Shown: positions 46,226 through 64,000, numbered from the stretch's first letter. The stretch: 64,000 bases of DNA from Sedimentisphaerales bacterium (GCA_963663965.2 CAXXFK010000028.1:448001-512000), one strand, 5' to 3'. The notes: generated by a model from the letters alone, not told the origin. Numbers and translations: made by a program.

Positions 46226-46281
46226 AATTAAAAATAGAGCTTTAATCTCGAAAGTATATTTAAGATAAAATTGAACTAAGA

Positions 46282-46312
46282 GCCCCGGGTTACCATCAAG
46301 GGAACTCGGGGC
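46282..46312. terminator. Hairpin after the prepilin gene (possible terminator)
   Basis: GCCCCGGGTT / AACTCGGGGC stem; weak U-tract. Confidence 0.5.
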
Positions 46313-46402
46313 AATTGTTTAAATTTACAGAATGTTTCTTTATTTAAATACTATTTGCTCGGTCGAATGGATTATCAAGACATAGTCCCAAATGAATATT
46401 AA

Positions 46403-46586
46403 AGGGTACCTCTAAAAATTGCTTTAGAGGCGAAAGTGAGGATGGTTTTTCTCTGGCAAGGAACAAAGAACCGGGCATATTTGACGATATTCACGGTTTT
46501 TTGTGACGCAGGCCAGAGGAGAACGCTTGTTTCGCTGCACGCGGAGTGCCCGCTTGCAGCCCTGAATGAATTATTAGAGGTTCCCT
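46403..46586. mobile_element. MITE-like non-autonomous element (~184 bp)
   Basis: 18-bp terminal inverted repeats AGGGTACCTCTAAAAATT / AATTATTAGAGGTTCCCT (2 mismatches); long internal imperfect palindrome; no transposase. Confidence 0.75.
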
Positions 46587-46590
46587 GAAG

Positions 46591-47169
46591 TTATTCGCAC
46601 TGCAAATTTTTTAGATTCGTTACCTGAGAGGTGTTATCTGGCAATTCACCGACCATCAGACATAATGCCTGAGAGAGATACTTGTCAAAAACGGGTGCAT
46701 CTGCTGATAAAAAACATTCCCATGCGGAAGGTGATGTGGCTGTTTCAACATGAGACGGCGTGGCGATGAGGTGAATAGTACGTATTGTTTTGTCTTCTTC
46801 ATAGGGAAGATATTCCGTAGAGGTTGATGTACCAAAATAATGCCTGCCGTTTAGTTGACCGGAATAATGATCGGTTGTCGTGTAAGGTCGATAATCCTGG
46901 ATGCGGGAAGTCTGGCTGCTCAATTCATAGTTAATGATAAAATCGGCCTGCGATTCCTCGACCAGAGTCAATCCCTGGCGTGTGAATTCTTCTGAAAGAA
47001 TCTGGTGGAGTTGGCGATGTTCGATGGATTGATCGGACTCATACCGAATGGCAAAACGGCTCTGCCGATCGATCTCAATCTTTGGATCACGATACGCTTC
47101 CAACCGGGCATTCGTATTCATACATCCCACTGTCAGCGTTAACAATAACAACAAGCATCCACGTATCAT
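46591..47169 (-). CDS. Lipoprotein, DUF4136-like
   Basis: MIRGCLLLLLTLTVGC lipobox; ...F..QGL.......ADFIINY...WE; start at ATG 47169. Confidence 0.6.
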   Translation of the reverse strand: MIRGCLLLLLTLTVGCMNTNARLEAYRDPKIEIDRQSRFAIRYESDQSIEHRQLHQILSEEFTRQGLTLVEESQADFIINYELSSQTSRIQDYRPYTTTDHYSGQLNGRHYFGTSTSTEYLPYEEDKTIRTIHLIATPSHVETATSPSAWECFLSADAPVFDKYLSQALCLMVGELPDNTSQVTNLKNLQCE

Positions 47170-47498
47170 TATCAATCCCTTTATAAATGAATATGGGGTG
47201 ATCTGGTAAAGAATAAGCGGTACTGATAATATTATACACGAAATGGCACAGAAAGTAAAAAAAAGAAATGGAAGGCCCAAAGTGTTTTGTTAATAAAATC
47301 ATGTAATTAATTTGAAAGTTATATGCTTGTCTGATATAATATGATAATCAGCTTGATTCGGCCGTATTTTTAAGCGTACCTCAAAATATTCAAAATTGAG
47401 TTCTGATAAAAACTCTATCGTTCTTTGAAAATTAAAGAAGCGAAACCTGATTCGGGATCCATATCTGAAGGGAAGAATTGGGAAAAATAAAAATTACA

Positions 47499-47863
47499 AA
47501 ACAAACCCACTTTATGGTATGCCGCGAATGACTCCTGCTGATAAGCCGGCTTACCCCCAGATCGAAACGAACCCAATTTTTAAAAAAACGTCGTTAAGAT
47601 ATTTGTAAGCAATCAGTTATATCACGTTATTAATATCAATACTAATGATACAGTTTCCAACTGAAAATGCCCGCTTGGCCGTAATATAAGTTCTACACGG
47701 TAAACATTGATCTTGCGAGCGATCAGGAATTTTCAAACCCACAGGGTTTAGTGTATAGATACTTCAATAGGTGCTCCTCATTGTATAACGGTTGCTGACT
47801 CATGGTCTAAACGAACCCAATCTAAAAAAAAGTCCACTTAACTTATTTGTTTAATTATGGTTA
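47499..47863 (+). repeat. Three copies of a 55-bp fixed-spacing element (47499-47553, 47565-47619, 47809-47863)
   Basis: AAAC(G/A)AACCCA(A/C)-N18-T(A/G)A-N19-TTA; spacing counted by hand in each copy. Confidence 0.85.
47662..47735 (+). repeat. 75-bp dispersed repeat, copy B (74 bp)
   Basis: TGAAAATGCCCGCTTGGCCGTAATATAAGTTCTACACGGTAAACATTGATCTTGCGAGCGATCAGGAATTTTCA. Confidence 0.9.
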
Positions 47864-47992
47864 TGATCGAAATCCGATTCTATATTATTCATGATATCTA
47901 TTACATTGATCATACCCGTCCTGTATCTTAAGGACTGTCCAGATGGGGCCATAATGACAATTTGAATCTGATTACCCGCCAGAAAATATCTT

Positions 47993-49399
47993 CTATTCGT
48001 ACCTTTCACCAAACAAAGTCAGCGATGATGCTTTGCGTATCTTTACTTCAACCAGTTTCCCCGTCAGCCATTCCGGGCCATCGAAGACAACGATCTGGTC
48101 CCCCTGGGTGCGGCCTGTAAGCTGTGGGTATGCCGTCTCGGTATCACTGGTTGAGCGGTCACTGTCCAAGTGTGGATTCTTGCTAAATCCCTCAACCAGG
48201 ATTTCAACCGATTGGCCAATAAGTCCTTGATTGTCTTCATAGCCAATTTCATGCTGTAAGGCCAGCAGTTCTTCCAACCGTCCCTGTTTCACATCATCCG
48301 GCACATCGTCAGCCATCTTCTGCCAGGCTTTGGTGTTAGGGCGGGGCGAATATTTAAATACAAAACAGTTCTTGTAACGGATACGCCGCATTAACTCAAG
48401 AGTGGCCTGATGGTCACTTTCCTGCTCTCCCGGAAAACCGCAAATAAAGTCACCGGCGACAGTTAGCTCAGGAACGATCGCTTTGCCTCGCTCAATCAAT
48501 TCGATATAGTCACTGACCGTATAGCGACGGTTCATGGCCTTTAATATCCGATCAGAACCGGATTGGGCGGGTAAATGCAGATAGGAACAGACTTTGGGAA
48601 GTGATGCCATGAGATGAAAGATACGTTCTTCAAAATGACGTGGATAGCTGGTGACAAATCGGATCCGGTCCAGACCTTCGATGGCATGAACAGATTCCAG
48701 AATATCCGCCAGACCATAGATCGTATCATGATCTTCATATCGGTAAGAGTTAATTGTTTGACCCAGCAGGGTGATTTCTTTAACGCCTTTATCTGTCAAT
48801 TGCTTGCATTCATCAATAATATGCTTAATCGGTCGTGATCGTTCCCGCCCCCGTACATACGGAACGATGCAATAACTGCAAAAATAATTACATCCGCGCA
48901 TAACTCGAACAAAAGCCATAAAGGGCAATCGTTCATCCCGATGCTGATGCCGGCTATCGAGTTCTTCCAGCAGATCATCCTGTTCCGGATCATTTAAAGA
49001 TAAGTATCGGGCCTGACGTGGTTTGGTGCCCTGATCCCGTTCGGTTCTGACTTTTTCGATCAGATCCACCAATTCATGAATCTGATTCGGACCGCAAACA
49101 ATAGCTGCCTGGTCCCAGCCATCCAGTAAATCCTGTCCCAATCGCTGGGCCATACAACCGATAACTGCCAGAACAAAGTCTTTTTTCTGCATGTAGCGCT
49201 TACGAAGTTGTCCGATTTTACTCAGTACCTTCTCTTCAGCGTGCTGACGGACGGAACAGGTATTAAAAATGATAATCCCGGCATTATTAATATGATCGCA
49301 GGGCTGATATCCTGCCCGCTCCAATTCGTTGGTTACCAGCTCTGAATCCAGTTTATTCATCTGGCAACCCATCGTTTCAATATAATAAGTGGCATTCAT
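47993..49399 (-). CDS. miaB: tRNA-2-methylthio-N6-dimethylallyladenosine synthase MiaB
   Basis: TMGCQMN..DSE, NTCSVR..AE.K, GCMAQ, GCNYFCSYCIVPYVRGRE radical-SAM motif, HLPAQSGSD, FKYSPRP.T, TRAM domain; start at ATG 49399 (or 49444). Confidence 0.93.
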   Translation of the reverse strand: MNATYYIETMGCQMNKLDSELVTNELERAGYQPCDHINNAGIIIFNTCSVRQHAEEKVLSKIGQLRKRYMQKKDFVLAVIGCMAQRLGQDLLDGWDQAAIVCGPNQIHELVDLIEKVRTERDQGTKPRQARYLSLNDPEQDDLLEELDSRHQHRDERLPFMAFVRVMRGCNYFCSYCIVPYVRGRERSRPIKHIIDECKQLTDKGVKEITLLGQTINSYRYEDHDTIYGLADILESVHAIEGLDRIRFVTSYPRHFEERIFHLMASLPKVCSYLHLPAQSGSDRILKAMNRRYTVSDYIELIERGKAIVPELTVAGDFICGFPGEQESDHQATLELMRRIRYKNCFVFKYSPRPNTKAWQKMADDVPDDVKQGRLEELLALQHEIGYEDNQGLIGQSVEILVEGFSKNPHLDSDRSTSDTETAYPQLTGRTQGDQIVVFDGPEWLTGKLVEVKIRKASSLTLFGERYE

Positions 49400-49642
49400 G
49401 TTTTGATTCTTATTTTTGTGGGGCTCTTGAATATAAAATGACATATTATAAGGATTGAAGTCGTCAATGTGAAACAAAACTATGGTTATTATCTTGTAAC
49501 TGTCTGTTATATAATATGATATGAAAATATTTCGTTGATTGTTCTGTAGATATTGTCTTGTCAAAAAAATGATTTTGGGCTAAGGTATTAAGGTCTCCTT
49601 CAGGCTGATTACGACAAGAATATAAAAGGAAATCAAGAACCG

Positions 49643-51217
49643 ATGTTTTCAACCTTCCTGGCATATAAACGCGTCATTGGACCGGACCAGTTCTTTTATC
49701 TGGCAGGTTCATCTTTGCGGCGTATGGGATTAAAATATACCACGGCTTCTGCTGGATTGGCTGGTTTATTAATATTAGCCGGCCTGATTGGTAACCATCT
49801 GGCCAGTTGGAACCTGACACCACCCAAAATGGGGATAAAAGCGCTCTGGTTGCCGGCTATTACTGCGATTGCGACTTTTGGAGTTGGAAATCTGTTTATT
49901 GCGATATCGCATCTGTTTTCTTCTTCTCGATTGATGACTGCGGATGCCAATAGTTTAAATCTGATGGAAGACCGCAAAAAATCCGATATGGTGCATCACC
50001 TTGAAATTCTTTGGGATCGTGTGTTCCAGTATGAAGCGCAGTTAGTCAATAATCCGGCGGTAGCTCAGTTTGAAAAAAATCGCCTGGATGGCTGTCGTGC
50101 CCATCTGGAAAAATGTATCGAAACCTGGCCTCAGGAAATCAAGGACCATCTTGATATTAGAGAAGATACCCTCGATGAATTTTGCCGCCATATCGAACAT
50201 TTTCGCCCTTTATCGAATCGCCTGGAAGCCACCGGTGAAGGATTTATGATTACCGCCAGCTATGGTTTGGAAAAATCCCTGCCCCAGAAATTACAACGCC
50301 AGAAAATTGGATTCGATCTCTCCTTATTGGAAGACTGGTATGACGGAGCTTTTTTTTCTGCGAATGATTGTAAACTGAAAGAACAATATGCCGCCCATTC
50401 AGCTATCAGGGCAATCAGACGTTTGGTCGGCATTTCGTTTTTAGAACGGTTTCATGAAATGATGACTGGTGTTTCGGATCCCATCTGGTTCACGTTGACA
50501 ATGAAGAAAATCGGAACCTCGACAGGAATATTGATTGATCGCTTTAACCGTAAATATACCCGGGATAATCAACCGGATTTCTTTGATGCTCAGGATTTTC
50601 TCTGGAAACATCCGGAAAACGAAAACGTGATTTGTGACTTTTTTGGCGGCCATGGCGATGGAGTTTTACGGGATTTGCAGCAGTCGCGCCGTAAAATGTT
50701 CCAGGATATATTTTCCTCTCGAAAAAGCCATGCTCACCGACAGGTGTTTCGTATGTTTGGACGGGATTTCAGCAATGCGTTGCAGTTGCGTTTAAAATAT
50801 GATGTTGAGTTCGCGGCTGGTTTGCTGGATTATGGGCCTCTTGACGATTGTGATGAAATGAGCGATCTCACTTGCGGTTCGGTTTATCCTGCAAACCGTA
50901 TTGAAAAAGCTGTGGTGGATGCGCAAAAAAGTATAAGGCAATGTGATATTTTTTTGGAAAAAGAAAAGCCAGAGTTATTGGATCAGCCTGAAAGCCTGCG
51001 TACAGTTCGTATTGGATGGCATGTGGATGAATACCAAGTTCAAACTCTGGCTGCAGTCAATCCCAATGAAGCGCTGGCCGTGATTCAAGGCCATACGATC
51101 GCATCGGTCCGAAAGACCACGAATCGCTTATGCACGTTGCGAGTTCATTATGAACTGACGCGAATTCAATTATTTTCATATTGTCTGATGATTGACTTAT
51201 TAGGGCAGTACGATTAA
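49643..51217 (+). CDS. Hypothetical protein with two N-terminal TM helices
   Basis: 524-aa open frame with normal composition; no recognised motif. Confidence 0.7.
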   Translation: MFSTFLAYKRVIGPDQFFYLAGSSLRRMGLKYTTASAGLAGLLILAGLIGNHLASWNLTPPKMGIKALWLPAITAIATFGVGNLFIAISHLFSSSRLMTADANSLNLMEDRKKSDMVHHLEILWDRVFQYEAQLVNNPAVAQFEKNRLDGCRAHLEKCIETWPQEIKDHLDIREDTLDEFCRHIEHFRPLSNRLEATGEGFMITASYGLEKSLPQKLQRQKIGFDLSLLEDWYDGAFFSANDCKLKEQYAAHSAIRAIRRLVGISFLERFHEMMTGVSDPIWFTLTMKKIGTSTGILIDRFNRKYTRDNQPDFFDAQDFLWKHPENENVICDFFGGHGDGVLRDLQQSRRKMFQDIFSSRKSHAHRQVFRMFGRDFSNALQLRLKYDVEFAAGLLDYGPLDDCDEMSDLTCGSVYPANRIEKAVVDAQKSIRQCDIFLEKEKPELLDQPESLRTVRIGWHVDEYQVQTLAAVNPNEALAVIQGHTIASVRKTTNRLCTLRVHYELTRIQLFSYCLMIDLLGQYD

Positions 51218-51417
51218 TAGGATTGAGTCCGATAAATTCTTGATTATGAGCGCTACTGATATTTGGTAATCAGTTTTAACCTTGATATTGCCAATTTAAT
51301 GTTTTAGAAGAAAAAACTGCTGATTCGGCGTTTAATTTGCTATGGGTTATGGTCGATAAACTAACTGAGTTTTCTGATATGGCATGCCATTAGCATTGTA
51401 TAAGAAAGGATGAGACC

Positions 51418-52338
51418 ATGCAGGAAGTTTTAAATCAGCAGGGAGAAATCGAACAACAGCGTGATCCACGTGAGATCATTCAAATTTTTGAAAAAGCTGA
51501 AGATTTGCCGACATTGCCCGAAGTGGCCATCAGCTTACAGCGGACCGTGGATGATCCCTACAGTAGCGCCAAGGATGTTGCCAGAATAATCAGTGATGAT
51601 CCGGCCATTTCAACTCGGGTATTGCGGATGGTTAATTCGGTCTTCTATGCTCCCGCTCATGGCGAAGAGATCACAGAACTGCAACCGGCGATTGCCCGGT
51701 TGGGGTTTATAACGGTGACCAATATCGCACTTAGTACCAGTGTGTTCCATGCATTTGCCAAATCGCAATTGCCGATTTTTGATCGTCGTGAATTCTGGCG
51801 CCATTCAATTAGCGTTGGTATTATCACCTCAGTGTTATATGATTTTTGCACCAATAGTATTAACCAGCATATTACACGTGACATGGCGCATCTTGCTGGC
51901 ATTGTTCACGATATGGGAAAAATTCTGTTTGAGCGGTATGCGAACAAGGAATTTCACAAGGCGATCGAAAATTCCGCCCGGCTCGATATTCCGGTGGTAA
52001 AAGAAGAAAAACGCCTGATTGGTATGAGTCATGATGAGGCGGGCGCCTGGTTGGCCGAAAAATGGAATCTGGGCAAAGAAATTCAGGCAGTCGTCAGTTA
52101 TCATCATGATCCCTTGTCCTGTCCCGAATCGGAACTTCAGGGTTTGGTTAAATTGGTTCATATGGCCGATTATATCTGTCATAATCAGAAACTTGGCGAT
52201 AGTGGCAATCCCTGCGCAATCTATGATAAGCGTATTCGGGAAGAATTAAACCTGACCCCTGATAAAATCGGTGAGATTATGGATGTGGTTGAAGTTGAGG
52301 CGGCCAATTCCGAAGTATTACTGTCTTTGACCGATTAA
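51418..52338 (+). CDS. HDOD domain signalling protein
   Basis: LPTLPEVA, ISDDPAISTRVLRMVNS.FY, AIARLG, FWRHS, AGIVHDMGK, H.EAGAWLAEKWNL, HHDP. Confidence 0.93.
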   Translation: MQEVLNQQGEIEQQRDPREIIQIFEKAEDLPTLPEVAISLQRTVDDPYSSAKDVARIISDDPAISTRVLRMVNSVFYAPAHGEEITELQPAIARLGFITVTNIALSTSVFHAFAKSQLPIFDRREFWRHSISVGIITSVLYDFCTNSINQHITRDMAHLAGIVHDMGKILFERYANKEFHKAIENSARLDIPVVKEEKRLIGMSHDEAGAWLAEKWNLGKEIQAVVSYHHDPLSCPESELQGLVKLVHMADYICHNQKLGDSGNPCAIYDKRIREELNLTPDKIGEIMDVVEVEAANSEVLLSLTD

Positions 52339-52728
52339 AAACAAGATTTTGTTTTTCGCTGAGGAGAAAACGAATGCAAGAGTCGGAAATATTTTTCCGG
52401 CTCTTGTAAATTATACGGTTGGGCGGCAAAATTATGAAATTCAAGGGGAACTGAAACGTTTATACAGATAACTTGTTTTGAAACAGGCCCTTGTGATGTG
52501 ATTTTTCGATCTTTCTCAATTATACGGGTTTTAACGATCAGATAAAATTTATTCGGTTTCGGCTTGAAGAAGACTCAATTTTTGTTTGTCGATTCGTAAC
52601 TTTCAGGTCTTATGTATTGTATAATATAACGTCAATAAATGGTAATGCCGGGTGTAATACATCCCAGCAACCTGCGACTAATGATTAGTTTGCTGTTGAA
52701 TGGACTGTAAATATATTTTCAGGGACAT

Positions 52729-53163
52729 ATGGAAAGAAAGGTTTGTAAGATGTCTGTTTACAGTGTATTAGAATTAACTCCCCAACAAGAGGCCGCATCC
52801 AGAGACGCCGCTATGCCGGCGTTACGCGGGTTGGCGTTTTTGTTTATTATTGCGGTTTGTTGTGATACTTTGAGTACCATCCATTTCATGACAATTCTTG
52901 GCCCGATGGGGCCCAGTTTTGAAATCAATCCGCTGTTTCGGCTGGCTGCGGTGGGTTATGGCAGCGTGGTGGGCCCTTTGCTATGTTGTTTATTTAAAAT
53001 TATCGCAGGTTTTTATGTGGCCTGGCGCCTGGGACGCTGGGCGCCTTATATGTTTATCACCGGAATCATTATTTCATTCTGGGCTGCGTGGTATAATATG
53101 TGGGGATGTTATATTGAGGAATATATTCCTGGTATATTGACGTGGAATTTCTGGGGTGTGTAA
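52729..53163 (+). CDS. Small membrane protein (DUF5658-like)
   Basis: D..ST.........EINPL...K motif within hydrophobic helices. Confidence 0.6.
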   Translation: MERKVCKMSVYSVLELTPQQEAASRDAAMPALRGLAFLFIIAVCCDTLSTIHFMTILGPMGPSFEINPLFRLAAVGYGSVVGPLLCCLFKIIAGFYVAWRLGRWAPYMFITGIIISFWAAWYNMWGCYIEEYIPGILTWNFWGV

Positions 53164-53344
53164 CGAATTTCTTATGGTCTTGAGAATGAATGCGGAAACC
53201 TGAAAAAGCCTTTTTTTTCAGGTTTTCTTTTTGGGGTTTCTTTTCGGTCGGCGATATAATTCTTTTGAATAAAAAACCTGCCTGGATTTATTCCTTTAGG
53301 GTGGGTATCGAAAGAAATTTTATCCGCCATGAAAGGAGCCTGTT

Positions 53345-54502
53345 ATGTTGAATTTTGAATATCAAAATCCAGTACATATTATCTTTGGTCGAGATACAAT
53401 TGCCCGCCTGAACGATTTGATCGATGCCGAAAAAAAAGTAATGGTGGTTTATGGGGGAGGATCGATTAAACGCAATGGGGTCTATGATCAGGTGGTAAAG
53501 GCATTGGCCGGCCGATCCGTCGTTGAATTTGGTGGGATTGAGCCTAATCCTCAGTTTGCGACTTGCATGAAGGCAGTGAAGCAGGCTCAGGAAAGCGGAG
53601 TGGATTTTTTACTGGCAGTAGGGGGTGGGAGTGTGTTGGACGCGACGAAATTTATCGCGGCCGCGATGGTATATGAAGGGGCTGATCCGTGGGATATTTT
53701 AAGAACACATGGGCAGGAAGTCACCAGCGCGATCCCGATGGGCACGGTATTGACGTTACCAGCAACGGGTTCTGAGATGAACGCAAATTCGGTTATTTCA
53801 CGGGCCGAAACGGAAGAGAAATTGCATTTTACCAGTTCGGCAGTGTATCCGGAATTTTCGATTATGGATCCGCAAACGATTGCGAGTTTGCCGGAAAATC
53901 AGATACGGAATGGGATTGTTGACGCGTTTGTTCATGTGGTCGAGCAGTCGATTACGTATGAGGTAAATACACCTCTGCAGGATCGGCAGGCGATGGCAGT
54001 CCTTGCGACATTGGTACAGGTGGCGCCAGATTTGATGGCGGGCAGCAAGGATTACGATCTGCTGGCCAATTTTATGTGGGCGGCAACTCACGCGTTAAAC
54101 GGTGTGATTTCGTGTGGCGTGGTGGAAGACTGGTCAATCCATATGATCGGGCATGAGTTGACAGCATTTTATGGGGTGGCGCATGCCGAATCGTTGGCGA
54201 TTGTATTGCCGGGGGTGTGGGAACGTTGTTTTGAGAAGAAGAAAGAGAAACTTGCCAATCTGGCTGAGGCGTTATGGGGGGTTACGTCCGGCAGTGTGGA
54301 TGATAAAGCACAGGCGGCGATAGAAAAGACGGAAGCGTTTTTCCATGCTATCAAGATGCCGACCCGGTTGGGAGATTATGGGGTGAAGGCGGCCGATCTG
54401 GATAAATTGAAGGCCCGGTTTAATGAGCGTGGATTAACTTATGGAGAACAAGGCGATCTGGGACCGGAAGCCTGTGGGGAGATTGTGGCCGGCAGGCTGT
54501 AA
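53345..54502 (+). CDS. Iron-containing alcohol dehydrogenase (YqhD/BdhA-like)
   Basis: F.YQNP..I.FG, YGGGSIKRNGVYDQV, GIEPNP, AVGGGSVLD..K, TLPATGSEMN, D...H..E, H.IGHELTA.YG..H. Confidence 0.93.
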   Translation: MLNFEYQNPVHIIFGRDTIARLNDLIDAEKKVMVVYGGGSIKRNGVYDQVVKALAGRSVVEFGGIEPNPQFATCMKAVKQAQESGVDFLLAVGGGSVLDATKFIAAAMVYEGADPWDILRTHGQEVTSAIPMGTVLTLPATGSEMNANSVISRAETEEKLHFTSSAVYPEFSIMDPQTIASLPENQIRNGIVDAFVHVVEQSITYEVNTPLQDRQAMAVLATLVQVAPDLMAGSKDYDLLANFMWAATHALNGVISCGVVEDWSIHMIGHELTAFYGVAHAESLAIVLPGVWERCFEKKKEKLANLAEALWGVTSGSVDDKAQAAIEKTEAFFHAIKMPTRLGDYGVKAADLDKLKARFNERGLTYGEQGDLGPEACGEIVAGRL

Positions 54503-54530
54503 CACTTTAATTGTCAACATGTTAGAATAA

Positions 54531-54562
54531 AAGGCTCCTGGAGATCATCTCCGGGAGCCTTC
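54531..54562. terminator. Hairpin terminator between convergent genes
   Basis: AAGGCTCCTGGAGA / TCTCCGGGAGCCTT. Confidence 0.75.
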
Positions 54563-54589
54563 TTATTGGGGGAGCGTTCTAGATCTCGT

Positions 54590-55909
54590 TCAGCCGCGGA
54601 TGCGGTTTTTGATACGGTTTTGAATATTCGATTTCAGCTCATCGAGTTTGGTTTTCTGTTCTTCAGTAAGCAGATCGAGGATGGCAGTTCGTGCCCGCTG
54701 GAGGAGTTGCCTTTTGGCTTCGGGGGTGTCGGCATTGGCCAGGGCTGCTTTGACGCGTTGCTGGAGATTCTGGATTTGCTGCTGTTGTGTTTCAGTGAGA
54801 TCAAGGCGTTTGAGTAACTGGAGAATATCCAGTCCGGCGGAGTTATCCTGGATACCCTGACGGATCCGGTCTTTGATCTGGTTTTCGATGCGGGCTTTCA
54901 TTGTTTCCAATTTTTGTTTTTGTTCTTCGGTTAGAATTGCCAGGATTTTTTCGTAGACCATTTCTTTGATAGCTTGTTTTTCTTCGGGGGTTTGAGCATC
55001 AGCGGCGGCGGTTCTGGCTTCCTGATGGATTTTGCCGATTTGAGTTTTCTGGTCATCGCTTAAAGCGAGTTTGTCTAACAATTGCCGAAGAGCTTCGCGA
55101 CGATCCGGCGGCGTCTGGGTATCTGGTTTATCCTGATCGGCTTTGAGTTCTTCGAGTCTGGCTTTTTGCTCTTCGGTTAAGAGCGCAAGGATGGCGTTAA
55201 AGGCTTTGGTCATCAGATCTTGCTTCGCTTCGGGAGTTTCGGCATTTGCGAGGGCGTTGCGCACACGTTGATGGATATTATGGATTTTTTCTTTCTGCTC
55301 ATCTGTCAGATCGAGTTGGCTGAGCAGGCGATGTAATCTGGCGATATCAGGGCGGTCCTGATGGGCGAGGCCGCGCAGTTCTTTGAGTTTTTGGATTTGT
55401 TCTGGGGTGAGGACGCCGATGGCTTCGGTTTTCATTCTTTCGAAAAGGTTCTGGATTTCTTCGCGAGTTTCGGCGGCGGCCATTTTATCGCGGTAATATA
55501 GTTTGATTTCTTCTAGTTTTTCGATCTGGTCGGTGGTGAGGTTGAGTTGTTCCAGTTGCTGCCAGTGGGCCTGGGCCAGCCGTTTGATTATCTGGAGGCG
55601 GTCCAGATTGGGGCGATCTGTGGTGTCGGGTTGGCCGTCGGGATTGATGATGGCGGCGATTTTCTGTTTCATTTCCTGAGAGAGGGCTCGTTTGGCCTGG
55701 GGTGTTTCGGCGGTCTGGATCTGGGGAAGGTATTCCGCTTTAATGGCTTCGATTTTCGCTTTTTGTTCGTCGGTCAGTTCGGGTAAGACGCGGGCACGAA
55801 TTGGATCCGTGTTGGTCTGGGCGGTTCTACGCGGGCGGACCTGGGCGGTAGCCAGGCTGGTGATGGCGAGGGATAAGATGAGGGTTAGAATGATGCGATT
55901 CGTTTTCAT
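54590..55909 (-). CDS. Secreted multi-repeat Spy/CpxP-like (LTxxQ) protein
   Basis: Signal peptide; nine L(T/S)xxQ motifs arranged in about five helical units. Confidence 0.8.
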   Translation of the reverse strand: MKTNRIILTLILSLAITSLATAQVRPRRTAQTNTDPIRARVLPELTDEQKAKIEAIKAEYLPQIQTAETPQAKRALSQEMKQKIAAIINPDGQPDTTDRPNLDRLQIIKRLAQAHWQQLEQLNLTTDQIEKLEEIKLYYRDKMAAAETREEIQNLFERMKTEAIGVLTPEQIQKLKELRGLAHQDRPDIARLHRLLSQLDLTDEQKEKIHNIHQRVRNALANAETPEAKQDLMTKAFNAILALLTEEQKARLEELKADQDKPDTQTPPDRREALRQLLDKLALSDDQKTQIGKIHQEARTAAADAQTPEEKQAIKEMVYEKILAILTEEQKQKLETMKARIENQIKDRIRQGIQDNSAGLDILQLLKRLDLTETQQQQIQNLQQRVKAALANADTPEAKRQLLQRARTAILDLLTEEQKTKLDELKSNIQNRIKNRIRG

Positions 55910-56043
55910 TTTTTTCTCCTGTGATGGAGGGTGATTTTTGTTGTCCGGTTACCAAGATTACTGATTATTACAATTATAACGATGGCGGGTGGTGGCTCCT
56001 TCGGAAAATATCCAGGATTGGTTTGGGTGTTAAGTTTTATCAG

Positions 56044-56064
56044 CGTGGGCGATGCCCACCCTAC
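56044..56064 (-). repeat. GTAG-type REP element
   Basis: Minus strand GTAG-G-GTGGGC-ATC-GCCCAC: a GTAG tetranucleotide followed by a short palindrome. Confidence 0.7.
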
Positions 56065-56073
56065 CGTGATAAG

Positions 56074-56859
56074 TTAGTAGTGGCGGCATTGGAGGGTGGT
56101 GTCGGTTGGGGTGATTTGGGATGGTTTCGTTTGGGTTAATGGTGATAAGTCGTTGCTATAATTGGTTTTATAGTCGAAATTGTTGGTGTTGGGTTCGTTT
56201 GGCGTTGAGGGGTAGTTTCGATCATATTGGTTGGGAGTTGGGTTCCATGGATCGGGTTGGGATTCGCAGGGCTGGGAGTTGGGATTGCGGTGGTTATCAG
56301 TAGAAAACCTGGTTGAGTTGTTTATTGGTAAGTTGTTGTTATTGTTTGTGTTATGGTCGAATTTGCCGACTTTGGGTTCGTTTGGCATTGGTGGGGTTTC
56401 GGGTTGTTGGTCTGGTTCGGGGGTGGCGTTGGGGTCGCACTGAATGGCGGGGGTGATCTGGTAGCCGGCGTCGAAGAGGATGTTTTTGCAATTGTCGATA
56501 ATCTGCTGGTATTCTTTGTCATTGGGCGGGCCTTCGGGGATGAGGTCTTTGATGGGATCGGTGATTTTTATGAATTGCTGGATGAGTTGGGTGGTAGCGC
56601 GGCGGGCGGTGATGGTGTTGTCGGAGCGGGACTGGACGACGAGGCGTTGGAGGGCCTGGTGGCCGGCGCGGGTGGCGCGGAGTTTGAAGTCGCGGCGGTC
56701 GTAGGCCATGAGGCCGGCCAGTTCGCAATGGTAGGGGTAGGTGTCGATGATGTATTGGTGTTGGCGGCGGGTGGTGTTGATGGTGGCGAGGAAAATGTCA
56801 TCGATTTCGGGGCGGTGGTAGTATTGGGCACGGGCGAGAATTTGCATGGAACGATTCAT
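56074..56859 (-). CDS. Hypothetical protein; low-complexity tail contains PNEP(K/N) repeats encoded by the 55-bp element
   Basis: GAGGTG RBS before ATG 56859; ~135-aa plausibly folded N-terminus, then a Pro/Asn/Thr-rich tail. Confidence 0.55.
   Translation of the reverse strand: MNRSMQILARAQYYHRPEIDDIFLATINTTRRQHQYIIDTYPYHCELAGLMAYDRRDFKLRATRAGHQALQRLVVQSRSDNTITARRATTQLIQQFIKITDPIKDLIPEGPPNDKEYQQIIDNCKNILFDAGYQITPAIQCDPNATPEPDQQPETPPMPNEPKVGKFDHNTNNNNNLPINNSTRFSTDNHRNPNSQPCESQPDPWNPTPNQYDRNYPSTPNEPNTNNFDYKTNYSNDLSPLTQTKPSQITPTDTTLQCRHY
56146..56383 (-). repeat. Two copies of the 55-bp fixed-spacing element (56146-56200, 56329-56383)
   Basis: Plus strand TAA-N19-TTA-N18-TTGGGTTCGTTT in both copies. 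Confidence 0.85.
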
Positions 56860-57012
56860 GGTTTCACCTCTTTTTCTGGAGACCTAATTAATAAAAAAAC
56901 CATTCTGAGTTTGACCGTTGGTGGCCGACTGTTGGGATTATAGGTTTTTGTTTGTTAAAAGTCAAAATAAAAATAATATTAAATACAAAAAATACATAAT
57001 ATAAGAAATTTT

Positions 57013-57620
57013 CACCATGAAGATACCATGAAGGGAAGAGGAAGAATTAACGGCCGGTTTATCCGCAGATGGACGCAGATAAAAATAAGTTAAGATATTG
57101 AAATATAAGAAGATATAACCACGGAAAAACGCGGAAAGACACGGAAGAAAAGCAGGTGGCTGCGCCACGATTTAAATGGGTTATTACCACAGAGGTCAGG
57201 AGGGCACAGAGGATGAGGAGCAGGGAAGAATCAAAGCTTTTTAGACAGGATCACAGGATCAACAGGATTTAAGAAAAAGGGAATTCAAATAAAATATAAC
57301 GGGTGGTTTAACCGTGGATAAACGCAGATAAAAATTGAGTTAAATCATTAAAATAAAATAAGATAGAACCACGGAATACACGGAACACACGGAAGAAATC
57401 AGGGATAAGTTCAAGAAATATATCAAAAAGGTGAAAAAGAGTGGCTGGGACACGGGGTAATTTTTTTAAAGGCGGGGGTTTACCACAGAGGTTAGGAGGA
57501 CACAGAGGATCATGGCAGGGGGCTATTAAGGATAAGAGAAGAAAAATGCTTTTTAGACAGGATCACAGGATTGACAGGATTAAGAGAGAGGATTTGGGAT
57601 TTAATATAACGGCCGGATTA
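57013..57620 (+). repeat. Higher-order array of short repeat cassettes
   Basis: CGCAGAT x2, CACGGAA x3, CACAGAG x2(+1 degenerate), ACAGGAT x3, in the same order twice. Confidence 0.9.
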
Positions 57621-58060
57621 GCTATTGATGTTAAATACATGTAACAATCTTGATATGCTTAAAATCAAACGAGTGTGGGTTGCCAGGTCCAATGAAAAAC
57701 AAAGAGCACTAGATTACAATTTTCCAGCACAATCACACCTATTTCCATTGCCAATTCCATGATAATCAGTTAGAATTACTTATATGGTCCCATAGAGGCG
57801 TGGACTAAAGTTACGTCTTAAAAAACAGTAACCATTTGTGTGGTCTGTAGATAGCGGCAATTTCGGTTATTTTGACAAGGTTGATTAAATAAAGATGAAT
57901 CGGTACCCGGTTACCAGTAAAGGGATTGTCGTTCCGGTGAGCTAAAAACGTTAGCTTCTGCTGAGATTTTTGGATAAAATCGCGTGAATACGGTCTATCC
58001 AGGCCGTTTAAGTTTTAAAGGTTCTGAGTATCAATTCAATCCAGAATTGCGAGGAAAACG

Positions 58061-59647
58061 ATGAAAAAGCTATTGGTTTTCGCTTTCGGTGTGTCGTTAC
58101 TTGTTACCAACATTCTTCAAGCTGAATTGCAGGGTTTGTGGGAGTTTGTTCCCGCGAGCGATCCGAATCTTATGCTCACGGCAACTATTGGTAATGATCT
58201 GGAACTGAGTACTGGAGGTACTCATACTTCTGTTGCCGGATTCGATCAGACCGATGGTGCGGTCCAGATTGGAGTGGGCAGCTACTTCATTTGTGACCAT
58301 GACATTGCGCCCAACGGCGGCAGCACTGGTTATGTCAACGAGTATTCATTACTGCTCGATATCATGTATCCGTTATCCAGTGCGGGTAAATGGATCTGTC
58401 TCTTTCAAACCAATTCGAACAATACCAACGATGGCGATTGTTTTATACGGTCAAGCGGCGGTGGCGTAACCGGCTCGGTGGGAGTGGCCGCGACTGGATA
58501 TTCCACTCAGGCAACCCAGGCCGGAAGATGGTATCGAGTGATCGTTTCGGTCGATAACGGCAGTTTCTACCGGATTTATGTTAATGGCGAGCTTTGGTTG
58601 GAAGGAGTGATCCAGAATATTAACGGACGCTTTGCGCTTGATCCGACGATATTGTTTTTCGCGGATGAAGATGGCGAGGACAACGACATCTGTGTCTCAA
58701 CACTGGCGATCTGGGACGAACCGCTCGATGAAACTATGGTTAGCACCCTGGGTGAGGCGGGTACGCCAGTGGGTGAAGTAGTGGGTTCGACGAGCGCGGC
58801 TTCGGTCACGCTGTTCGAAAAAAGCACAACACCGCAAACATTCAATCTGCAATTGACCGGTGACGCAGCGCCCACCGCTCCTGTGATCGTCACGGTCGAT
58901 CCCAATACCATACTGGGCAACGAAGGGGATTTTCAGTTGATCGCTCCGGGCCAGACCCAACCCGCACAACCCGGCGAACCGATTACCGTAACCTTTACTC
59001 CTGAAAACTGGCAGACACCGCAAATAATCGGGGTAGTGCCGGTTGACGATACCGAACTGGAAGGTATCGAGGAGGCAGGGGTCCGGTTTGTCGCAAGCAG
59101 CGCCGACAGTCACTTTGACGGAGGAATCGTACCCTTTGTCAAGGTTGTCATATATGATGACGAAAGCTCGGGATTTTTTGTGGCTCCTGTGGCAATCGAT
59201 GCAATCGAAAACGGTCCAGCCGCGACCTATTCGGTCGTGCTGACCGGAGTTCCATCGAGTTCAGTAACCATTTCAATCCAGGAATCGTCCACGCCGAATC
59301 GCGTCACGGTCGATCCGGCCACGCTGATCTTTAGCCCGGCCAATGCGGCGATCCCCCAGATTGTCAGTGTAACGGTCCCTGACGATACTGTCTATCAGGG
59401 CAAGACCTACACCACCGCCCTGGTGCACCAGGCCGCGTCGACCGATGAAAATTACGCCTTGCTGCCGGAGATCAACCTGCCGGTGACAATTTTCGACAAC
59501 GATTGCGGCGCCTGGGGATTCCTGCCTGCTGACCTGAATCACGATTGCCGGATCGATCTGGATGACATCGCCCTGTTGGCCGGCTCCTGGTTACATTGTA
59601 CCCAGCCGTTTGTCGCCGGATGCGACGAAGTATCCCTCACCGAATAA
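58061..59647 (+). CDS. Secreted LamG-like jelly-roll + Calx-beta-like repeats + dockerin-like tail
   Basis: Signal peptide; LamG-like domain (WYRV.VSVDNG...IYVNG); TFTPENWQTPQ...V..VDD repeats; ADLNHDCRIDLDD...LA.SWL. Confidence 0.8.
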   Translation: MKKLLVFAFGVSLLVTNILQAELQGLWEFVPASDPNLMLTATIGNDLELSTGGTHTSVAGFDQTDGAVQIGVGSYFICDHDIAPNGGSTGYVNEYSLLLDIMYPLSSAGKWICLFQTNSNNTNDGDCFIRSSGGGVTGSVGVAATGYSTQATQAGRWYRVIVSVDNGSFYRIYVNGELWLEGVIQNINGRFALDPTILFFADEDGEDNDICVSTLAIWDEPLDETMVSTLGEAGTPVGEVVGSTSAASVTLFEKSTTPQTFNLQLTGDAAPTAPVIVTVDPNTILGNEGDFQLIAPGQTQPAQPGEPITVTFTPENWQTPQIIGVVPVDDTELEGIEEAGVRFVASSADSHFDGGIVPFVKVVIYDDESSGFFVAPVAIDAIENGPAATYSVVLTGVPSSSVTISIQESSTPNRVTVDPATLIFSPANAAIPQIVSVTVPDDTVYQGKTYTTALVHQAASTDENYALLPEINLPVTIFDNDCGAWGFLPADLNHDCRIDLDDIALLAGSWLHCTQPFVAGCDEVSLTE

Positions 59648-59661
59648 AACTTGTCAAAACG

Positions 59662-59697
59662 GGGTAACCTTTCCACTATGTTGTGGAAAGGTTGCCC
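59662..59697 (+). promoter_or_regulatory. Intercistronic stem-loop without U-tract
   Basis: GGGTAACCTTTCCAC / GTGGAAAGGTTGCCC, a 15-bp stem with one U-G pair, between two co-oriented genes. Confidence 0.55.
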
Positions 59698-59723
59698 TCA
59701 GTCCAATTACAGGAGAAACGAAA

Positions 59724-60479
59724 ATGCAACGCAAAACCGTATTTATGCTTGTATTGCTGACTTTGCCTCTCACTATTTCAGCAACCACCCTGCCAGTCGC
59801 TCTCTGGCAATTCGACAATGCCGATCAGTTGGGCCAGGCTACCCTGGGCGAGGATCTAGTTCTCACCGGAACGGCCGATGCCGTGGCAGGAATAGCTGAT
59901 GGCGATGGCGCCGCGCGAATTGGTGTGGGTAGTTATTTCACCGCCGCTAATACCGTTGGCCCCAATGGTGGCGACGGTTCAGCGGAATACACCAACCAAT
60001 GGACCCTGCTCTATGATATCAAATTTCCCCTGTCCGAAAGTTATAGCAGCTTGTTTCAGACCCAGCCGGCTAACTCCAACGATGGCGACCTGTTCACGCG
60101 ATCCAGTGGCGCTCTGGGTGTTGGCGCCACCGGTTATGCCGCGGCAGGCACACTCCAGGCCGACACCTGGTATCGGCTGATTGTGCGGGCTGATAACGGC
60201 AACCTCTTCCAACTCTGGCTGGATGGTCAGAAAGTACTGGAAGGAACTTCACAGGGAGTCGATGGCCGGTTTGGTCTGGAAGACACCTTTCTGCTGTTTG
60301 CTGACAATGATGGCGAAGAGGAGCCGGTCGATGTGTCCCTGATCGCTTTTTGGGGTGAAACCCTCACCGAAAACCAGATAAGCGAACTGGGTACTGCCGG
60401 TGTTCCGGTCCCCGAACCGGCCTCACTCAGTTTGTTGATCCTGGGCGCCGCCAGTTGTCTGCGCCGGGGCAAACGTTAA
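59724..60479 (+). CDS. PEP-CTERM sorted protein with LamG-like domain
   Basis: Start at ATG 59724 behind AGGAG; signal peptide; C-terminus VPEPASLSLLILGAASCLRRGKR. Confidence 0.9.
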   Translation: MQRKTVFMLVLLTLPLTISATTLPVALWQFDNADQLGQATLGEDLVLTGTADAVAGIADGDGAARIGVGSYFTAANTVGPNGGDGSAEYTNQWTLLYDIKFPLSESYSSLFQTQPANSNDGDLFTRSSGALGVGATGYAAAGTLQADTWYRLIVRADNGNLFQLWLDGQKVLEGTSQGVDGRFGLEDTFLLFADNDGEEEPVDVSLIAFWGETLTENQISELGTAGVPVPEPASLSLLILGAASCLRRGKR

Positions 60480-60557
60480 TCTGTAAGAGCATACATTGAT
60501 TGGACATTTAACGCTAATTGATTAATATCTCAGATCTGAGTTGATGACATTTTTTAA

Positions 60558-60585
60558 GCCGGCTGCCAATAACGTGGCAGCCGGC
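60558..60585. terminator. Hairpin after the PEP-CTERM gene
   Basis: GCCGGCTGCCA / TGGCAGCCGGC perfect 11-bp stem. Confidence 0.6.
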
Positions 60586-60607
60586 CTGAATTTATACCCA
60601 ATGGGTA

Positions 60608-60682
60608 TGAAAATTCCTGATCGCTCGCAAGATAAGTTTTTACTCGTGTAGAACTTATATCACGACCCAGCGGGCATTTTCA
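60608..60682 (-). repeat. 75-bp dispersed repeat, copy C
   Basis: Reverse complement TGAAAATGCCCGCTGGGTCGTGATATAAGTTCTACACGAGTAAAAACTTATCTTGCGAGCGATCAGGAATTTTCA. Confidence 0.9.
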
Positions 60683-60716
60683 ATGGTAAGCAGTACCTAT
60701 ATGGAGAAGAAATAGA

Positions 60717-62646
60717 ATGCGCCGATTTTATCTTTCCGGATGCCTCTCACTCACCTTGTCGTATTTAATTGTCTTGCTCGCGTCTTTCTGTCCGGGGGGC
60801 CGATATCGAAACTGGCCTGGCCGGGCTTTGGCGTTTTGATGATCCGGCCAATCTGACCAAGGCCGATCAGGGCCAGCCTCTGGTTTTGACCGGCAGCCAC
60901 CAGGCCGTGTCGGGCATCGATGATGAGGATGGAGCCGCACGCATCGGTATCGGCAGCTACTACCGTTGCGCACACGGCATCTCCCCCAATGGTTCGGGTC
61001 AATATGTCAATGAGTGGTCATTGGTAATCGATTTCCGTTATCCCGCTACCAGCGCCGGCCAGTGGATGTGCTTTTATCAGACCAGTCCATCCAATGGTAA
61101 CGATGGCGATTGTTTTATCCGGTCCGGCAGCGGCACCCTGGGGGTTTCGGCTACCGGTTATAGCGCGTTGAGCACGCAATCCGATACCTGGTATCGCATG
61201 GTCGTTTCGGTCGATAACGGCTCGTTTTACCGGATTTATATCAACGGAATCCAATGGCTGGAGGGATCCGCCCAGGCGGTCGATGGCCGGTTTTCACTGG
61301 ATCCGGAGTTGTTGCTGTTTGCCGATGAAAATGGCGAAGATTATCCCATCGATGTCTCGCTGGTGGCCCTTTACGACCGCTCGTTGACTGCCGACGATGC
61401 GGCGGCTTTGCGGGGGCCGGGCGGCAACGAGGTCGTGCCACCCGACACCATGCTTCTTACCAAACCCTATCTGCAGAATGTGCAACCGGACGGGATAACT
61501 GTTATGTGGGAACTTACCGCTGAGGAGGTCTGCCGGTTTGACTATGGCCTGGATGGAAATTATGGCATGGAGGGGCAAATCGTTTCGCTTCTCTCTGGAG
61601 CCGGTACACTGATTTATAAAACAGCGCTGACGGATTTGAACCCGGCGACGGTTTATCAATATCGCTTGACTGTGGCGGATCAGTCGTATGATGGTTCCTT
61701 TGTTACGGCCCCGCTCGGCCGCGCCGCTTTTACTTTTGGCGTCTGGAGTGACAGTCAGGGCACCAATCACGACCAGTATCCCGTTGACCCTTATGAGCCA
61801 ACCAGGAAAATGATGGCCCATATGGCCGACCGGGTCGATTTTGGCGTAACAGTGGGCGATCTGGCTGAAAATGGCGCCTCGTATGGTGATACCCGCGTCT
61901 ACTATCTGGATCGTGTCGCCGCTTACCTGGGTCAAAAAATCCCCTGGTTTGTCGCCTGGGGCAATCACGACCAGGGTTCCACGGCCGTTATCCGTCAGTT
62001 TCACGACTTGCCCAGCCAACTGCGCGGCGGCGAATTCACTGCCGGTTATGGCAGCTATTCCTTTGAATACGCCGGCTGCCACTTTCTTTGTATCGACGAT
62101 GCCGACAGATCTGATATGGCCTGGGTTGAAAGCGACTTGCGGCGTGCCTGGACCGGCGGAGCGCGTTTTATTTTTGTTTTTGTCCATCGTCCGCCCTTCC
62201 TGGAACGCTGGTACGAGGGTGAGGAGTTCTTCCGGGAAAACCTGGTGCCATTGCTGGAAAAATATGGCGTCGATGTCTGCTTCAGCGGCCACATGCACGG
62301 TTATGAACGGGGGCACCTTAACGGGGTTTATTATTGCGTGACCGGCGGGGGCAGTTGGCTCGATTTGCCTGAACCGCTGGTGCGGGACTGGCCCCACATG
62401 ACTGTTGGCGGCTATAACGATCTCGCCCCCGGTATTGATGGCGGATTGGTTAACGAATATGTTACGGTTACGGTCGACGCACTCGGTTTCGTGGCAACCA
62501 TGATCCCGTTTTATCCCGATGGCTCGGTCATGCCGGGTGTAACCGACACCTTTGGCAAAACCGACCTGCAAGCCGATATCAACCGGGATGGCAAAGTCGA
62601 TCTGGACGATTTGATTATCCTGACCAACAGTTGGTTACGCGAATAA
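60717..62646 (+). CDS. LamG-like + FN3 + purple-acid-phosphatase-type metallophosphoesterase + dockerin-like tail; frameshifted at G6 (60794-60799)
   Basis: SDSQ, GDL, GNHD, HRPP, SGHMHGYER metal-binding motifs; ADINRDGKVDLDD tail; the signal peptide from ATG 60717 is in a different frame from the body. Confidence 0.85.
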
Positions 62647-62813
62647 CGAAGCTTTTCTTGTTGCCGCCATTGGCCAGCGAAATCAAAACCAATGTCCTGT
62701 GGTTACCATTGAAAAGGCCCTTATGGTCTTGATATAACCGGCAGGTATCTGGAGTACTTTTTCGAGCGCTCAGTTTTTTTATGTACGAAGAGTATCAACA
62801 GTGCCGCAAAACA

Positions 62814-64000
62814 TTATACCTGGGTCAGGATGGTCCATTTTTTGATGGCGTTGAGGAGGGTTTCGACTTCGAAGGGTTTGCTGACGAAGTCGTCCATGCC
62901 GACGCTGAGGCAGTGTTCGAGGTCGCCTTTGATGGCGTTGGCGGTGAGTGCGATGATGGGGATGCGCGCGGGCGGCAGGCCGGGCCGGGCGTTTTGTTTT
63001 TCCATTTTTCGGATGGCCTGGGTGGCCTGGTAGCCGTCCATGACGGGCATGGCGCAGTCCATTAAGATCAGGTCGTAGGTCTGATTTAAGACGGCGTCGA
63101 GGGCGGCCTGGCCATGGTCGACGATGTGGCATTCGATGCCGTGCTGGCGGAGGATCTCGGCGGCGATTTCCTGGTTGATTTCGTTGTCTTCGGCGATCAA
63201 TACCGTAAGGTGGTACTGGGACAGATCTTCAATATTATCGATTTCGCTGGACGCGCCGGTGGTGATTGACGGGTTGGCCGGCCGGCCGTTCTGATGGTCG
63301 AAGATGGATAGAATCATGTCATAGAGCGAGGATTGCATGATGGGTTTGATGAGGACGTATTCAAAGCCGGCCTGTTTGAGGGTGTCGAACATTTCGTGGC
63401 GGTGATAGGAGATCAAGGTAATCACGGCCATCTGTTGGTATTCAGGCAGTTCTTTGATCTGCCGGATGAGTTTGAGATGGAGGCTGTCGATCGATTCGAT
63501 GTCGATAATGGCCAGGTTGTAGGGGGGGGCGTCCTGCTGCCGGGCGATTTTGAGGCATTCAGTGGCCTGGAGGGCGTTGGCGGCGATATCGGCGGTGCAG
63601 CCCCAATGGTCGATGAGTTGAGCGAAGACGGTGCGATAGGTTTCGCTGGGATCGAGAATCAGGACGCGCAATTGTTTGAACGATTCGGTGATCTGGTATT
63701 TTTCGGCGAGGGCGGGGGATTGGGTTTGTTTTTTGAGACGGGCGGTGAACCAGAAGGTGGAGCCTTTGCCGGTTTCGCTGTCGACGTCGATCTGGCCGCC
63801 CATGAGTTCAACCAGTTGACGGCTGATGGCCAGACCGAGGCCGGTACCGCCGAATCGGCGGGTCATGGAGGAATCGACCTGGCTGAAGAGACGGAAGAGT
63901 TTGTCGCGCCGGTCGGGTGAGATGCCGATGCCGGAATCCTGGACTTCGACGCGAATGATGACGTCGTCGGTCAGGTCCTGGTCCAGGACGATGCGAAGAA
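62814..64000 (-). CDS. Hybrid sensor histidine kinase / response regulator, C-terminal part (5' end outside window)
   Basis: HATPase (VQDSGIG, FSQVDSSMTRRFGGTGLGLAI, GKGSTFWF), a degenerate REC domain, and a REC domain with AEDNEINQ, LMDCAMPVMDGY, ALTANA, SKP. Confidence 0.93.
   Translation of the reverse strand, partial: LRIVLDQDLTDDVIIRVEVQDSGIGISPDRRDKLFRLFSQVDSSMTRRFGGTGLGLAISRQLVELMGGQIDVDSETGKGSTFWFTARLKKQTQSPALAEKYQITESFKQLRVLILDPSETYRTVFAQLIDHWGCTADIAANALQATECLKIARQQDAPPYNLAIIDIESIDSLHLKLIRQIKELPEYQQMAVITLISYHRHEMFDTLKQAGFEYVLIKPIMQSSLYDMILSIFDHQNGRPANPSITTGASSEIDNIEDLSQYHLTVLIAEDNEINQEIAAEILRQHGIECHIVDHGQAALDAVLNQTYDLILMDCAMPVMDGYQATQAIRKMEKQNARPGLPPARIPIIALTANAIKGDLEHCLSVGMDDFVSKPFEVETLLNAIKKWTILTQV

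Follow-up and report, generated by a model that had tools for sequence, protein, structure and literature searches.

A 55-bp unit that recurs in a stretch of 64,000 nucleotides from a Sedimentisphaerales bacterium (GCA_963663965.2, CAXXFK010000028.1:448001-512000, in the following called the window) is part of a real and undescribed genetic element; no published description was found in the abstract openings covered, subscription journals and supplements being outside the scope. The best reading is that the element is dispersed and headed by a promoter, and that it carries small-terminase-like genes of two kinds, here called family A and family B. We put the probability at about one half that the unit is the repeated cis site, comparable to cosB of lambda or pac of P22, of a selfish element which has no transposase and exploits a packaging motor. 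A mechanism of this kind seems likely, though unproven.

The unit, its geometry and its clusters

All five copies of the unit listed in a preliminary description of the window were recovered at their coordinates, four of them exact and one degenerate. The exact copies have an identical 12-bp box and read AAACGAACCCAA-N18-TAA-N19-TTA. On the plus strand the degenerate unit (47499..47553), in which the box has two mismatches and TGA stands in place of TAA before the TTA, as had been described, is followed by full units at 47565..47619 and 47809..47863. These three form a cluster (47499-47863) that holds no gene and is headed by its own sigma70-type promoter, TTGAAA-N17-TATAAT, at 47312..47340 (+). 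The preliminary description drew no link to a terminase-like gene, but the two right-hand units lie inside one, the family A open reading frame (ORF) of 261 aa at 56074..56859 (-). The first is in its 3' part at 56329..56383 (-), and the second follows 183 bp after it at 56146..56200 (-), a spacing common to sister copies. The further boxes noticed earlier are also present, at 47565 and at 56121..56132 (-), the latter with two mismatches and no dyad.

The genome (G000; 7.24 Mb in 42 contigs, 94.6% complete) contains 136 exact boxes, as compared to 1.3 expected from a fifth-order Markov model, and 287 boxes of the eight forms AAAC[GA]AA[CG]CCA[AT], as compared to about 15 expected. TAA follows at +18 in 147 of the 287, TTA at +40 in 135, and both in 119, while the next-best pair of spacings is found 12 times and a reversed control pattern gave no match. 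Genome-wide, the box is thus preferentially followed by TAA at +18 and by TTA a further 19 bases on. Neighbouring boxes lie on a common strand 149 times and on opposite strands twice, and this co-orientation, together with a polar footprint on the flanking chromosome, supports the earlier view of a directional box plus dyad as a protein-DNA architecture. The spacers had been called unrelated, but with a mean pairwise identity of 47.5% and 98 distinct sequences among 119 they are diverged yet related, because many of the units sit in multicopy elements. They contain an A-rich tract; C follows TAA in 81% of the units and stands two bases 5' of the box in 98%. A CRISPR had been dismissed before, correctly since the distance between units is irregular (27-436 bp), and a known RNA family was rejected as well, Rfam giving no match in positions 46000-58500 of the window.

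Both spacers had been described as fixed, which is true between genomes only for the second. The N18 form of the unit is found in none of 40 relatives, while the distance from the box to TAA-N19-TTA is 21-25 bases in other planctomycetes and 14-28 bases in genome G021. As the dyad is kept between genomes and its distance from the box varies, 19 is the constant spacing, and the 18-base spacer is specific to the Sedimentisphaerales genome. A phylum-wide scan for the full pattern gave one match in 200 genomes, and in viral collections the pattern gave 23 loci that appear to be chance singletons. Family B and the bursts of boxes are patchy, from 0 to more than 100 matches per genome. The absence of the N18 form from the relatives and the patchy expansion of the box show that it is not a conserved nucleoid or replichore signal of the host.

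The 119 units group into 70 clusters. A sigma70 promoter lies at most 1.5 kb upstream on the box strand of 52 clusters, as compared to 10 on the other strand. Family B is the neighbour of 25 clusters and family A of 14, and 31 have neither. The two kinds of cassette share a promoter module, which in the window is TTGACT-N17-TATAAT at 56937..56965 (-) followed by the start module common to both multicopy families, and some family A copies are followed by units of the family B type or by the family B right end. The conserved stretch of the copies holds a promoter, arrays and one ORF, and nothing else. In family B copies a variable array of units is found on the left and a bare box inside the gene, and the right end is fixed: past the stop there is a hairpin whose sequence varies, and in 20 of 26 copies a word similar to TGCGC stands 72-76 nt downstream of the stop. 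The segment L034:2618-2700 and its sisters correspond to this hairpin and word. A dif/Xer site or attC as the right end was dropped because the inner arms are missing. An insertion sequence or a miniature inverted-repeat transposable element was also rejected, as no family matched and the flanks of 18 copies share only 5-8 nt matches at chance level, a check that short duplications could escape since the left ends are ill-defined. A phage satellite (PICI) does not apply either, the integrase and the replication module being absent from the conserved stretch.

The dyad has TTR at both ends and is 66% AT. TAA-N19-TTA is as long as two IHF consensus sites would be that have the base in their middle in common, with WATCAANNNNTTR in AT-rich DNA as the core of the consensus. 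By this consensus, 19 of 87 distinct units are within one mismatch of the core on the right half, and the right half of the unit at 47565..47619, AAGCAATCAGTTA, is one mismatch off. The sole HU/IHF gene found reads RLEFR, in an alignment by eye, at the positions for IHF-beta specificity, which makes a homodimer reading TTR on both sides plausible. The specificity residues of IHF-beta are Arg42, Glu44 and Arg46 (bioRxiv 2024.06.24.600358). The dyad could be a bend site of the IHF type, though it fits weakly.

Two gene families and their links to terminases

By sequence comparison, family A is a homologue of the small terminase (TerS) of the host. A profile of the genes that precede the large terminase (TerL) gene in 11 relatives, searched against 59,355 ORFs, retrieved two satellite-borne genes and 12 family A copies only; a 13th copy fell below the threshold. 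The ORF in the window, a diverged dispersed copy of the host TerS gene with about 15 copies in the genome, was matched at E 9e-6. It has no direct PHROG match; the relatives' genes match the TerS family phrog_2538 in six of nine proteins (best E 1e-13). One family A copy with boxes, on contig C30, directly precedes the genome's only match to the TerL query (phrog_2, E 3e-12). In relatives a GNAT gene stands before the TerS-TerL pair, and here it is found about 4 kb ahead of this family A copy. No TerL stands beside the copy in the window. Family A is under purifying selection: in ten full-length copies pN/pS is 0.029/0.16 over the first 90 codons, and the constraint is weaker beyond. Five of 16 starts are broken. 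The window ORF has a repeat-derived C-terminal tail, and just 3' of its stop there is a GTAG-headed REP-like hairpin (56043..56064, -), probably a passenger, which is absent from most sister copies.

Genes for a large terminase, a portal and a capsid are retained by the host and by most of its relatives. TerL is present in 32 and the capsid gene in 31 of the 40 relatives, and in the present genome about 72 kb separate TerS-TerL from the portal, scaffold and capsid genes on the same contig. The genome gave no match to PF04860, PF05065 or PF06074, the search for PF06074 being run without a positive control. At L162:7450-17174 the portal, scaffold and capsid genes stand together with six further co-oriented genes and no terminase. 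Two satellite-like islands, L148:2982-8852 and L149:2074-7366, carry a TerS of the host TerS family and an integrase, that of L149 in pieces, and one of them has primase/helicase-like genes. Contig C30 also holds an apparently frameshifted unit of two ORFs that is present three times in tandem (L163, G000:C30:208369-211565).

Family B (ANRRNAQKSTGP...HGL) is an ORF of 279 aa with 26 copies in the genome. It is under purifying selection, all 26 local ORFs being intact, 840 nt long and 89-96% identical, with a pN/pS of 0.08. At third positions it has 176 C, 34 G and 14 T of 280, and G is lower than C in 83 of 88 loci of element genes. The family gave no Pfam, NCBIfam, PHROG or PDB match, an Atlas search returned unnamed clusters only, and the family, itself unnamed, comprises 35,877 clusters at E<=1e-10. 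We infer that family B is a protein of the TerS type and the binder of the box. A stretch of 40 columns at the N-terminus of family B matches (hhalign 96%, E 2e-9) the gene that stands ahead of TerL in Bacillus phage BboS-125, and this gene in turn has a weak match to the TerS family phrog_9231 (E 6e-7). The predicted model (pLDDT 83) consists of helices throughout; its long hairpin and variable tail resemble those of TerS cores (PMC9611059).

Outside the present genome, family B gave 3-104 matches in each of five genomes. Eighty family B loci were compared, which belong to Acidobacteriota, Planctomycetota, Alphaproteobacteria, Actinomycetota and Verrucomicrobiota and in many cases come from a few genomes. 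In 58 of them the box lies inside the gene or next to it, and its orientation relative to the gene is forward in 32, reversed in 27 and both in one. Eight of the 40 relatives have family B, and the box is expanded in four of these and in none of the 32 without the gene. The expanded four contain 85, 176, 36 and 17 boxes, the four that have the gene but no expansion contain 1-5 each, and none of the 32 has more than 13. Most of these are draft genomes, and the organisms are kin and not independent. The expanded genomes show one or two family B genes, which suggests that family B acts in trans. Across genomes the box tracks family B and not the host TerS, and the earlier proposal of an undescribed system is borne out in so far as the box is linked, across phyla, to an unannotated gene family.

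The skew of the flanking chromosome

For 3,653 genes from a crude gene call, the GC skew at four-fold sites was fitted with terms for contig and gene strand. Upstream of the clusters, as read on the box strand, the kernel was -0.15, -0.20, -0.18, -0.15, -0.11, -0.08, -0.04 and +0.02 over the distances from 0-5 to 90-130 kb. Downstream it was -0.17 within 5 kb and near zero beyond, with a null standard deviation of 0.03-0.04 from 40 random placements. The clusters are marked on the box strand by a one-sided depletion of G, which takes about 90 kb to fade in the upstream direction. This holds for all three types of cluster and is present at 43 box-only sites, and no such skew was seen at 235 promoters without a box nor at 18 GTAG repeats. 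Taken locus by locus, a rise of the skew with distance is seen in 36 of 45 cases upstream and in 19 of 39 downstream, which argues against rearrangement steps. The right cluster of the window has four-fold-site skews of -0.16, -0.40 and -0.16 upstream, where the flank at 57000..64000 (-) is G-poor on the box strand and continues past the window, and +0.06 and -0.08 downstream; the left cluster is weak, -0.05 upstream as compared to +0.23 downstream. Read by the bias of deamination, the sign of the skew suggests that it is the strand opposite the box that spends time single-stranded.

A proposed packaging site and its alternatives

According to the reading that we prefer, a terminase-like protein would bind the 12-bp box, a protein of the IHF/HU type would bend the TAA-N19-TTA dyad, and a large terminase would next move in one direction only, into the chromosome upstream of the box, and package it. 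At clusters without a gene, such as the left one in the window, the binder may be family B acting in trans. DNA would be cut and packaged at the clusters, the element would gain by being over-transferred, and the skew would result from the transferred DNA re-entering cells as one particular single strand. The far end of packaged DNA is ejected first and DNA enters 3' end first; entry through ComEC would then expose the strand opposite the box. DNA delivered by the gene transfer agent (GTA) RcGTA enters through ComEC/DprA (PMC12378983). The packaging route is favoured because two unrelated terminase-linked genes ride one cassette, and because the unit resembles cosB of lambda and the intragenic pac of P22.

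In cosB the TerS sites R3, R2 and R1 are combined with the IHF site I1 (PMC4856287). The unit is similar in that TerS-associated sites are repeated, that a putative bend site of the IHF type stands at a set distance from them, and that a TerS-like gene adjoins or contains them. Unlike in lambda, there are at least 70 chromosomal clusters here, the boxes are all direct, no cosN-like site was identified, no prophage surrounds them, and family B is not a winged-helix protein. The pac site of P22 is a short asymmetric site inside the TerS gene (PMC9611059, PMC11226127), which is similar to the intragenic asymmetric unit, and the one-sided, decaying effect on the chromosome is similar as well, although here it is a mutational skew and not particle coverage. 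Pseudo-pac sites (PMC9611059, PMC11226127) are chance look-alikes, whereas the units are selected, clustered and headed by promoters, and come with a gene of their own. RcGTA is stated to have no discrete packaging starts (PMC7947584), while discrete, polar and lineage-specific sites are proposed here. The host-kept single-copy TerL, portal and capsid genes are nevertheless like those of a GTA, and entry by ComEC would supply the single-strand stage. PICI and SaPI satellites encode their own TerS, which is similar in that another's packaging motor would be redirected, but the present elements have no integrase, primase or replication origin genes, are 1-2 kb long and occur in tens of copies. 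The rolling-circle transposons IS91/ISCR and Helitron and the REP/RAYT elements share the fixed hairpin end, the many non-autonomous copies, the one-sided effect on the flank and the lack of a target duplication; the difference is that the elements here lack an HUH transposase and that the unit is asymmetric and not a hairpin.

A number of observations weigh against the packaging reading. No transposase, integrase or target duplication that could explain the dispersal was found, and neither packaging nor displacement accounts for the arrival of copies at new loci. The packaging of double-stranded DNA produces no strand bias by itself. The comEC gene (G000:C2:2134-4141, about 1 kb from a family A copy) is in pieces in the assembly, split over several frames by an assembly error or as a pseudogene. 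At the host TerS-TerL locus no box is present in the loci of 19 relatives, so the box is not an ancestral site of that motor. Family B shows no similarity to family A and lacks the N-terminal helix-turn-helix said to be common to TerS. Searches with its fold gave no significant match (best Z 7.7, to generic hairpins), and TerS profiles were weakly matched in 5 of 120 members. No TerL of the Phycisphaerae type was found within 2.5-4 kb of 82 family B loci, other types of TerL being looked for by eye among the downstream ORFs. From viral collections the family is nearly absent, with two loci and one weak phage match. The right half of the dyad has 3.09 mismatches of 6 to the IHF consensus, as compared to 3.55 +- 0.12 in shuffled sequence, the left half is at background, and the strict dyad was not seen after Acidobacteria boxes. 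As to the skew, 22 REP-like clusters show a short-range dip on both sides, and of two other genomes, both of Acidobacteria and each represented by ten elements, one reproduced the skew in part. In G240 the upstream value was below the downstream one in 10 of 10 cases (p 0.001), with a small and two-sided effect, and in G242 it was not reproduced (p 0.6).

The strand argument fits packaging and displacement equally, and the most serious alternative, though an unlikely one, is that the unit is a polar initiation site for strand displacement or one-way replication (rolling-circle, one-ended or run-off). Family B would load a nickase or helicase, and synthesis running upstream across the element and on into its flank would copy the element and deaminate one strand. 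This would account directly for the sign and the gradient of the skew, and uptake would not be needed. The third positions of the element genes are exceedingly rich in C, and a fixed right end with a variable left array is the arrangement of rolling-circle elements. On the other hand, no signature of an HUH protein, a recombinase or a polymerase was found in family B, some of its members have another residue in place of the near-invariant Tyr, and its 3' hairpin is weak as DNA (z from +0.2 to -2.2). Of the conjugation machinery that an oriT would call for, the coupling protein PF02534 was not found in the 94.6% complete genome, where no search for a relaxase was made, and the amplification of a host TerS gene with the same modules would be left unexplained.

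We regard it as improbable that the elements are domesticated and useful to the host, either by steering a GTA-like particle to many starts or as decoys that jam the packaging of infecting phages. The intact family B copies under purifying selection, the vertical retention of head and terminase genes and the strong promoters at 52 of the 70 clusters would agree with such a role, but the patchy bursts, the mosaic arrays and the broken family A copies look selfish, and 32 of the 40 relatives show neither a family B gene nor an expansion of the box. Quite improbable, too, is an operator or organising site of an autoregulated DNA-binding protein, for transcription control or IHF looping, with no role in packaging or replication. 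The position of the boxes downstream of strong promoters, in leaders and within their own genes, and a basic N-terminal motif, are what such a site would predict; it gives no account of a one-sided mutational gradient over tens of kilobases that is absent at 235 other promoters, nor of the TerS homology of family A. Units that act in RNA (an array transcript bound by protein, or a retro-mobile element) have very little probability. The co-orientation of promoter, arrays and gene would suit them, as would a sense-strand G-to-A bias that could stem from a cDNA stage; against them, 27 of 80 loci have box and gene in opposite orientations, there is no Rfam match, spacing is kept rather than pairing, and cDNA cannot mark untranscribed upstream flanks.

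In the most far-reaching reading the element may, tentatively, represent a new class of selfish DNA that occurs in several phyla and is encoded by a protein family of more than 35,000 clusters. It would consist of a promoter, a terminase-like adaptor gene and arrays of box plus bend site, would commandeer the host's domesticated motor or that of a phage for the one-way transfer of up to about 90 kb of adjacent chromosome, would be able to recruit the TerS gene of the host, and would measurably reshape the GC skew of the genome. If true, a function could be assigned to a bacterial protein family that ranks among the largest without annotation, and a mobile element would be described that has no transposase, integrase or polymerase of its own. 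Such elements would bias mutation and the transfer of genes across tens of kilobases, strongly enough for the GC skew to be distorted. The apparently domesticated phage particle of this planctomycete group would also become directly accessible through a 12-bp site whose direction is predicted.

Some further features of the window lie outside the two clusters. A one-mismatch box at 63720-63731 (-), in a long ORF and with no dyad, is probably due to chance. Upstream of the family A promoter, at 57060-57581 (-), there are short internally repeated motifs of three kinds, with 10-20 matches each in the genome, which resemble repeats that occur beside GxxExxY genes. A small membrane protein encoded at 52729-53163 (+) is similar to one at L162:6570-6998; neither has a Pfam match, and one of the two lies beside the portal gene. 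The segment 38102-44971 (-) encodes a BlaI-like repressor followed by a BlaR1/M56-like protein of 2071 aa with SecD-like repeats, as judged by eye, and proteins similar to this pair flank about 15 of the box clusters.

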